Source of the DNA: Escherichia coli
GTDB taxonomy: Bacteria > Pseudomonadota > Gammaproteobacteria > Enterobacterales > Enterobacteriaceae
Length of the DNA: 64,000 bases
NCBI RefSeq assembly: GCF_045037415.1
Contig: NZ_CP173438.1
Direction: 5' to 3' (one strand)
Position 1 is the stretch's first letter; every line of letters begins with the position of its first letter. The notes beneath the pieces were generated by a model. That model had not been told where the DNA came from. It searched no databases and saw only the letters and a program-made list of their open reading frames with translations. Made by a program: the position numbers and the translations under genes. Below, in pieces: positions 6,211 through 6,349 of the stretch.

Positions 6211-6349
6211 CGTAAAGCAGGCATCTGATGTGTCAATTTCTGTAAATGACGTTAACAAAGTCACGCGGAAAGTCAGATGCCTGCCGGTAGTGCATTTGCT
6301 ATAGTAGGGCACTTTTTTTAATTCCATCACGGATGTCGTAGTTCAGACC

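Follow-up and report, generated by a model that had tools for sequence, protein, structure and literature searches.

The space between rlpA and dacA on the Escherichia coli chromosome contains a perfect 12-bp inverted repeat, and the question that this locus raises is whether the repeat acts as RNA, and if so in which transcripts, or whether it serves the DNA of the dacA promoter. The repeat was noted in a stretch of 64,000 nucleotides (64 kb) of E. coli DNA (contig NZ_CP173438.1), which is referred to here as the window and to which all coordinates refer unless stated otherwise. Its initial annotation had put forward two possibilities, a long stem-loop in messenger RNA (mRNA) reading through from rlpA, with a role in processing or stability, and a protein-binding palindrome. 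The comparative evidence described below indicates that the repeat is a conserved structured RNA element, whose pairs are kept by compensatory substitution on one strand. This element is probably a stem-loop that lacks a U-tract and that defines the 3' end of RNAs from the rsfS-rlmH-mrdAB-rlpA genes by blocking exonucleases.

The inverted repeat and its predicted fold

The genes rlpA (an open reading frame (ORF) at 5122–6210, annotated as rlpA in E. coli genomes, with its stop codon TAG at 6208–6210) and dacA (6350–7561, with its ATG at 6350) are part of the core E. coli chromosome, where mrdB, rlpA, dacA, ybeD, and lipB are all located on the plus strand. The intergenic space between rlpA and dacA is 139 nt long. 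The left arm of the repeat, GCAGGCATCTGA, is present at 6217–6228, beginning 6 nt past the rlpA stop codon, and its exact reverse complement, TCAGATGCCTGC, is found after a 44-nt spacer at 6273–6284, so that the repeat ends 65 nt upstream of the dacA ATG. Both the sequence and the coordinates were thus reproduced, and the repeat is a real observation. In the plus-strand RNA, the 5' arm of the stem is GCAGGCAUCUGA, with a conserved core at 6220–6228 (GGCAUCUGA), and the 3' arm is UCAGAUGCCUGC, with a conserved core at 6273–6281, which overlaps the −35 element of dacA. Seven of the 12 pairs of the stem are G-C.

The window contains four perfect 12-nt inverted repeats with a spacer of 3–60 nt, compared to 0.23 expected from first-order Markov random sequences, a number that argues against a chance origin. 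The other three repeats (10698–10725, 30694–30729, and 50172–50204) have short loops, are flanked by a run of A and a run of T, and are located at gene ends, and they resemble ordinary bidirectional intrinsic terminators. When an 80-nt query covering the rlpA-dacA repeat was compared with 5,426 complete E. coli genomes, it was found in 5,424 of them, at a median of one place per genome and always between rlpA and dacA. The repeat carries no annotation in E. coli genomes, and a search of 5000–8200 against Rfam 15 at a permissive threshold yielded only noise and no family at its gathering score; the best overlapping match, a plant microRNA model, scored 16.4 bits against a gathering score of 65 (E = 8.1). 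Likewise, no paper discussing the element was found in the literature on rlpA or dacA in combination with terminator, promoter, small RNA (sRNA), ProQ, Hfq, or RNase III.

The initial annotation's suggestion of a long stem-loop in RNA arriving from rlpA is supported by the predicted fold, as well as by the conserved arms and the mapped 3' end described below. For the plus-strand RNA of 6205–6300 a free energy of −36.1 kcal/mol was obtained (z = −4.3), which was equaled by none of 200 shuffled sequences, and the corresponding values for the minus-strand RNA were −26.5 kcal/mol and z = −3.25. All 12 pairs of the stem have a probability of at least 0.99 in a context of 191 nt. The minimum-free-energy fold also contains an inner helix, UUUCUGU / GCGGAAA (6237–6243 / 6265–6271), which encloses an apical hairpin, UGAC / GUCA (6247–6250 / 6260–6263), that is predicted in E. 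coli only. The predicted stem-loop thus spans about 68 nt and comprises a G+C-rich basal stem of 9–12 bp, the inner helix and an apical region, with the outer and inner helices together making up an interrupted duplex of about 20 bp. A further helix that could extend it, GACUUUG / CAAAGUC, was considered and set aside, as it is paired in 57% of cells across species, compared to 78% for the inner helix.

Compensatory changes in the stem across the Enterobacteriaceae

The initial annotation had made its proposal dependent upon conservation of the arms in other Enterobacteriaceae. To examine this, 80 Enterobacterales loci around dacA were compared, of which 49 Enterobacteriaceae species were included in an alignment. 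In essentially all of the Enterobacteriaceae an inverted repeat is present at the same position, with its right arm ending 65–69 nt before the ATG, but the letters of the arms differ, so that the arms are indeed conserved, as complementary sequences. The inner 9 bp (6220–6228 / 6273–6281) are kept across genera, and the outer 3 bp are for the most part confined to the Escherichia/Citrobacter lineage. The arms read GGCATCTGA / TCAGATGCC in Escherichia, Citrobacter, and Kosakonia, ATCCGA / TCGGAT in Enterobacter, Lelliottia, and Leclercia, GGCACCTGA / TCAGGTGCC in Phytobacter, GGCACCAG / CTGGTGCC in Mangrovibacter, GGCACCCG / CGGGTGCC in Shimwellia, and CCGGCATCC / GGATGCCGG in Erwinia mallotivora.

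In the 49-species alignment, 83% of the cells of the 12-bp stem are paired, and double changes are observed at 7 of its 12 pairs. For the stem and inner helix taken together, 81% of cells are paired, compared to 32–48% when the 3' partners are slid by 1–3 columns, and the covariation score was matched by none of 500 shuffles, a shuffle statistic that ignores the kinship of the species. The inner helix is itself paired in 78–79% of cells across species, and one of its pairs swaps from C-G to G-C. A covariance model was then built from 42 sequences, with 7 of the 49 Enterobacteriaceae held out. This model detected the element in all 49 species, 47 of them with 48–91 bits and two held-out loci with 32 (L024) and 27 bits (L019). 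In the window it reported one significant site, at 6214–6288 on the plus strand (89 bits), and it gave marginal matches in Erwinia, one Pantoea, and Mixta. In the alignment fitted to the model, which favours the structure because it is fitted to it, 83% of cells are paired, compared to 33–47% with slid partners (1–3 columns), double changes are seen at 10 pairs, and the nine core pairs are formed in 85–100% of 46 distinct sequences (93–100% for pairs 7 to 13). The pair 6226/6275 illustrates these changes well: 23 sequences have U-A at this place, 20 have C-G, and 3 have U-G, and on a neighbour-joining tree of dacA the pair requires at least 10 changes on each side, which indicates that the switches were many and independent.

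The mismatches also reveal the strand on which the pairing has been selected. Read in the sense orientation, G·U cells outnumber A·C cells by 34 to 11 in the core stem and by 87 to 18 in the inner helix, and most of the changes are located in the left arm, as U·G and G·U wobbles. This excess points to selection on an RNA helix of the rlpA/dacA strand, rather than on a cruciform in DNA, an antisense transcript, or a half-site bound by a protein. The minus-strand RNA was therefore rejected as the functional form, as its fold is the weaker one and its wobbles are in the wrong sense.

These results also bear upon the second proposal of the initial annotation, that of a palindrome bound by a protein at the DNA level, for example as an operator for the dacA promoter. 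The overlap of the right arm with the −35 element is in keeping with such a role, and invariant letters and a direct repeat in the interior of the hairpin (described below) could be binding sites. However, the arm sequences change between genera and yet stay complementary (cf. GGCATCTGA, GGCACCAG, GGCACCCG, and CCGGCATCC), and their mismatches are mostly G·T in the sense orientation. The distance between the arms ranges from 23 to 66 nt among the relatives, and half-sites 56 bp apart, as in E. coli, do not fit a simple dimer. A palindromic operator has a conserved half-site and fixed spacing, and here both sequence and spacing vary. Hence, the protein-binding palindrome was not supported by the comparison, and an operator, or a chance repeat, which the observed conservation excludes, is a very improbable explanation for this element.

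A pairing between the segment following the rlpA stop codon and the −35 region was also examined in each species by a shuffle test. It reached z ≤ −3.3 in 46 of the 49 Enterobacteriaceae, with −2.2, −2.8, and −3.1 in the other three. Beyond this family, it was also observed in several Erwinia, one Pantoea, and one Mixta, and was weak in Serratia, and by the same test it was absent from Hafnia, Rahnella, Yersinia, and Edwardsiella. In some of these groups other structures follow rlpA. In Rahnella (L069, L072, and L075), Hafnia psychrotolerans (L073) and a further relative (L067), the long-range stem is replaced by a canonical terminator, a GGGGC-N4-GCCCC hairpin followed by GUUU(C/U)U about 100–150 nt before the dacA ATG. 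In Yersinia a 10-bp hairpin is followed by UUUAAAAU, and other hairpins follow rlpA in Edwardsiella and Erwinia persicina. In Serratia (L049, L052, and L053), a long-range CCGGCAG / CTGCCGG pairing was observed around an inserted 12-bp hairpin. Judged from these sequences, the presence of a hairpin at the end of rlpA is general and its form is variable.

An RNA 3' end beside the stem and the start of dacA

The transcripts of this region are known from studies of strain MG1655, whose coordinates are obtained by subtracting the window position from 670312 and in which these genes lie on the minus strand. Published Term-seq data contain an RNA 3' end at MG1655 664018 on the minus strand, with 91,306 reads in LB at an optical density (OD) of 0.4, and at 664017, with 41,794 reads on another sheet, probably for LB at OD 2.0, so that the end is listed on two of the three sheets (Adams et al., 2021; PMC7815308, supplementary file 1). 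In the window these positions are 6294 and 6295 of the plus strand, where the RNA ends with ...GCCUGCCGGUAGUGCA(U)-3'. The first of these counts is comparable with that for the ybeD terminator peak on the same sheet (73,288 reads), and as the minus-strand counts in this file are on a far larger scale than the plus-strand counts (the smallest seen being about 23,469 and about 850, respectively), counts are comparable only within a strand. The mapped end reads ...UCAGAUGCCUGCCGGUAGUGCA(U)-3' and lies 10–11 nt past the stem, just before UUUGCUAUAGU, or 8–9 nt from the helix if two extra basal pairs are counted; the stem itself is followed by CCGGUAGUGCA, and the end at 6294/6295, ...GUGCA(U), precedes a short UUU. 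The initial annotation had named transcript-end data as a check, and this 3' end is consistent with the processing or stability role that it considered. A weak antisense 3' end, ...GCCUGCUUUACG-3', was also listed at 6211 on the minus strand (MG1655 664101, plus strand), 6 nt past the same stem, with 1,166 and 1,788 reads on two sheets and a third listing on another sheet (Adams et al., 2021). This end agrees with a structure able to block exonucleases on transcripts of either strand.

Both the 664018 and 664017 ends were classed as "orphan," and 664017 was kept in the table of "5' UTR/internal" ends (UTR, untranslated region), for which the stated rule requires a start site at most 200 bp upstream in that condition (Adams et al., 2021). 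The name dacA is absent from the main text of that paper, where the peak, as published in its supplement, is not discussed. An operon table by Dar and Sorek has the operon ending at rlpA.

The start of dacA lies downstream of this 3' end. By SMRT-Cappable-seq, a transcription start site (TSS) was mapped to MG1655 664001 on the minus strand, which is the A at 6311 of the window, with 126 reads in M9 and 130 on a second sheet, and it gives rise to dacA and dacA-ybeD-lipB transcripts (Yan et al., 2018; PMC6131387). The position of this TSS fits an extended −10 element, TGcTATAGT (6297–6305), which is separated by a 17-bp spacer from a −35 element, ATGCCT (6277–6282), both on the plus strand. The dacA promoter was not recovered by a scan of 5900–6700 for consensus sigma-70 promoters, because it combines an extended −10 with a weak −35. 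Across the 80 Enterobacterales loci, TTTGCTATAGT in the dacA promoter region is almost invariant, and so is GGCACTTTTTTTAA..CCATCACGGATGTCGT downstream of the right arm. Within the right arm, the invariant letters are G6276, T6278, G6279, and C6281, of which the last three are exactly the matches of ATGCCT to TTGACA. Two points follow from the position of the promoter, both of which had escaped the initial annotation. First, stem and promoter share DNA: the 3' arm coincides with the −35 region of dacA, and the hairpin interior with its upstream promoter region. Second, as the dacA TSS is located downstream of the hairpin, the hairpin is absent from dacA's own mRNA and is formed only in RNA that comes from upstream, so that the orphan peak marks the end of rlpA transcripts.

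Such upstream RNA does not always end at the stem. A full-length rlpA-dacA-ybeD transcript, labeled "novel," was sequenced from a TSS at MG1655 665332 on the minus strand (Yan et al., 2018), which corresponds to about position 4980 of the window, inside the end of mrdB (3999–5111, plus strand, from the ORF list and annotation), and it demonstrates that read-through occurs. The full-length RNAs containing rlpA that were sequenced by this method came from the 665332 start and not from the operon promoter.

The stem-loop forms only in transcripts from the rsfS-rlmH-mrdA-mrdB-rlpA operon, or from an internal start upstream of rlpA, and based upon these observations, we consider it probable that it marks and protects the 3' end of these RNAs by stalling exonucleases. 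The initial 3' end may be the work of a leaky terminator or of an endonuclease that cuts within the A/U-rich segment GCA|UUUGCUAUAGU, with the stable end at 6294/6295 as the result. RNase E cleavage in this A/U-rich segment, at CAU|UUG, is one candidate for its origin. RNase E has a preference for R-N|W-U-U, and the CAU|UUG at the 3' end resembles it. Another candidate, which would apply to E. coli only, is a predicted second, weak hairpin at 6289–6313 (−7.8 kcal/mol), followed by U7 at 6314–6320 on the plus strand. The 139 nt between the two genes must also make room for the dacA promoter; the 3' arm accordingly overlies the −35 element, the hairpin interior doubles as an upstream part of the promoter, and the 5' arm, which is free to vary, tracks the changes in the −35 region.

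The second hairpin spans the −10 element, can form only in RNA begun upstream of the dacA TSS, and has A6294, the mapped 3' end, as its only bulged base. In this form it was found only in Escherichia, Pseudocitrobacter, and one Enterobacter species; many other genera have in its place a TATAGC-NTTT-GCTATA palindrome at the spacer and the −10 element. Given this replacement in other genera and its weak fold, the second hairpin with its U7 was rejected as a family-wide terminator.

The stem, alone or together with the second hairpin and U7, could instead be a leaky, non-canonical terminator or insulator, which would halt polymerases from upstream ahead of the dacA promoter or inside it. Promoter occlusion would thereby be limited, and RNAs initiated at dacA would escape, as they start inside the second hairpin. 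The canonical intrinsic terminators found at the same position in sister families, the 8–9 nt between helix and 3' end when the two basal pairs are added, and the antisense 3' end, which follows the stem where UUUACG comes next, are all compatible with termination. The second hairpin and U7 also have a terminator-like architecture, if only in read-through RNA. Additionally, no Rho-termination region is listed near 6294/6295 in supplementary file 2 of Adams et al. (2021), which argues weakly against Rho at the rlpA terminus. However, the main stem has no U-tract, and GUAGUGCA would give a strong RNA:DNA hybrid; a scan of 5900–6700 for terminators, defined by a short loop and a T-run, was negative; no Term-seq 3' end is listed in the U7 run (Adams et al., 2021); the second hairpin is weak and is not conserved across genera; and the read-through RNAs were sequenced at full length. 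In view of these facts, we attach to termination of this kind a limited but real probability. The statement in the initial annotation that the repeat is not a simple intrinsic terminator agrees with these results, given the missing U-tract and the 44-nt interior.

A cut by an endonuclease could also explain the 3' end, either by RNase III on the interrupted helix of about 20 bp or by RNase E beside it, and the main role of the site would be to uncouple the stabilities of rlpA and dacA in the read-through mRNA. The length of the duplex suits the former enzyme, and the likeness of CAU|UUG to the RNase E motif, along with a downstream A/U-rich segment that is predicted to be largely single-stranded, suits the latter. 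If RNase III cut inside the stem, no hairpin would be left, whereas the stable 3' end is found beyond a stem that is intact, and the main text of a paper on RNase III targets makes no mention of rlpA, dacA, mrdA, or mrdB. Cleavage by RNase E beside the stem is compatible with the end-protecting stem-loop and is partly included in it. As a separate explanation, a dedicated endonuclease site thus appears quite improbable.

It could also be considered that the hairpin is the 3' module of a discrete sRNA, derived from the rlpA 3' UTR or initiated within the last 200 nt of rlpA, in which the hairpin would form a terminator-like end and the loop UUAACAAA a functional motif. The abundance and precision of the 3' end and the invariant letters in the apical loop predicted for E. 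coli are in accordance with this, and the listing of 664017 among the "5' UTR/internal" ends implies a start site at most 200 bp upstream. However, no start site is present at 664018–664217 in the SMRT-Cappable-seq data, a method that selects long RNAs (Yan et al., 2018), and the scan of 5900–6700 revealed no promoter-like site. The RNA has no U-rich tail for Hfq, no record of it was found in the literature or in Rfam, and the loop letters could just as well belong to the upstream part of the dacA promoter, at about −54 to −69. A discrete sRNA of this kind is therefore improbable.

Two bolder versions of these ideas, which we regard as rather doubtful, may be mentioned together. In one, the element would be a device embedded in the promoter that tells foreign from local transcripts: polymerases coming from rlpA would transcribe both arms, the second hairpin and U7, and would be stopped or processed at the dacA promoter, whereas those starting at dacA +1 would miss these 5' arms and so pass. 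In the other, the RNA would be a stable, conserved sRNA of about 80–200 nt from the rlpA 3' UTR that ends at 6294/6295, and if this were true, it would have a function of its own in the control of cell-wall genes.

Several points weigh against the end-protecting stem-loop that we favour. RNAalifold, when applied to the raw MAFFT alignment, missed the long-range stem and predicted only three invariant pairs in the −10 region; it was for this reason that a named structure was tested with slid-partner and shuffle controls and by realignment with a covariance model. This structure was named from the E. coli fold, which inflates the proportion of paired cells relative to the slid controls. Further, part of the conservation of the right arm is not due to RNA, as this arm is also under constraint as a −35 element. 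The existence of read-through rlpA-dacA-ybeD RNAs indicates that the element does not stop all transcription, an interior of 44 nt is atypical for protective or terminator hairpins, and the coincidence of hairpin and 3' end within 10–11 nt may be due to something else.

The interior of the hairpin and the dacA leader show some further features. Within 6232–6276, the letters GT.A at 6242–6245 and T.ACA at 6253–6257 are invariant, at about −69 and at −58 to −54 from the dacA start, and the interior also contains a direct repeat, AAAGTCA, at 6256–6262 and 6268–6274. From their conservation and position, the invariant letters and the repeat could be upstream promoter elements or sites for a regulator. 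A GTAAA-N5-TTAAC sequence in the interior weakly resembles a CpxR box. The dacA 5' UTR (6311–6349) is nearly invariant across the Enterobacterales, reading A-C-U7 (T6 in MG1655) followed by CCAUCACGGAUGUCGU. It contains no obvious Shine-Dalgarno sequence 5–10 nt before the ATG, and it carries a tiny ORF, AUG UCG UAG, at 6333–6341, which reads AUG UCG UUG UUC UGA in most other genera. The U-run at +3 to +9 recalls promoters that are controlled by reiterative transcription.

Relation to known elements and significance

The rlpA-dacA element resembles a known kind of mRNA end. One class of transcripts described by Dar and Sorek (2018; PMC6061677) has precise 3' ends just past stable stem-loops that lack a U-tract, where the RNA is trimmed by PNPase and RNase II. 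The features common to this class, viz. a stable stem-loop where an operon ends, a precise Term-seq 3' end just downstream and no U-rich tail, are all found at the rlpA-dacA element, whose assignment to the class is based upon sequence and 3'-end criteria, with no Rho region listed. It differs from the class in its structured 44-nt interior, as the members have stem and loop lengths like those of terminators, and in the second use of its 3' arm, as −35 element of the promoter that follows. With intrinsic terminators it shares a G+C-rich stem at a gene end and an RNA 3' end about 8–11 nt after the helix. However, it differs from them in its long interior, in place of the usual short loop of about 3–8 nt, in the lack of a U-run with the 3' end inside it and in its documented read-through.

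Two other systems are also of interest for comparison. Repetitive extragenic palindromic (REP) sequences and the bacterial interspersed mosaic elements (BIME) that contain them stabilise intercistronic mRNA, as between malE and malF. Like these, the rlpA-dacA repeat is a palindrome between genes whose RNA form would stop 3' exonucleases and so keep the upstream cistron stable. However, REP sequences form a dispersed family, whereas this sequence does not match the REP consensus and is single copy, and a dispersed REP-like repeat was rejected in view of its single place in the E. coli genomes and the single covariance-model site in the window. In the frd/ampC region of E. coli, the frd terminator is a hairpin downstream of the ampC start that acts as an attenuator of ampC. 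There, as here, the signals ending one operon are interleaved with the promoter region of the next gene, but the rlpA-dacA hairpin precedes the dacA start and is not part of dacA mRNA.

As a mechanism, the element does not represent a new class; it is a tidy illustration of a known kind of mRNA-end structure and is unlikely to surprise specialists. The element itself is a new and well-conserved member of that kind, for which no describing paper, annotation, or RNA family was found. It accounts for an orphan Term-seq peak, which might otherwise be taken for a premature 3' end within a dacA leader. What sets it apart is the double use of one arm of the RNA helix, which in the DNA serves as the −35 element of the promoter that follows: drift in the promoter forces compensating changes in the other arm, which thus co-evolves with the promoter element. 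In this manner, the 139 nt separating two cell-wall genes accommodate both a signal that ends the weakly expressed mrdAB-rlpA operon and one that starts the strongly expressed dacA, the gene for PBP5.
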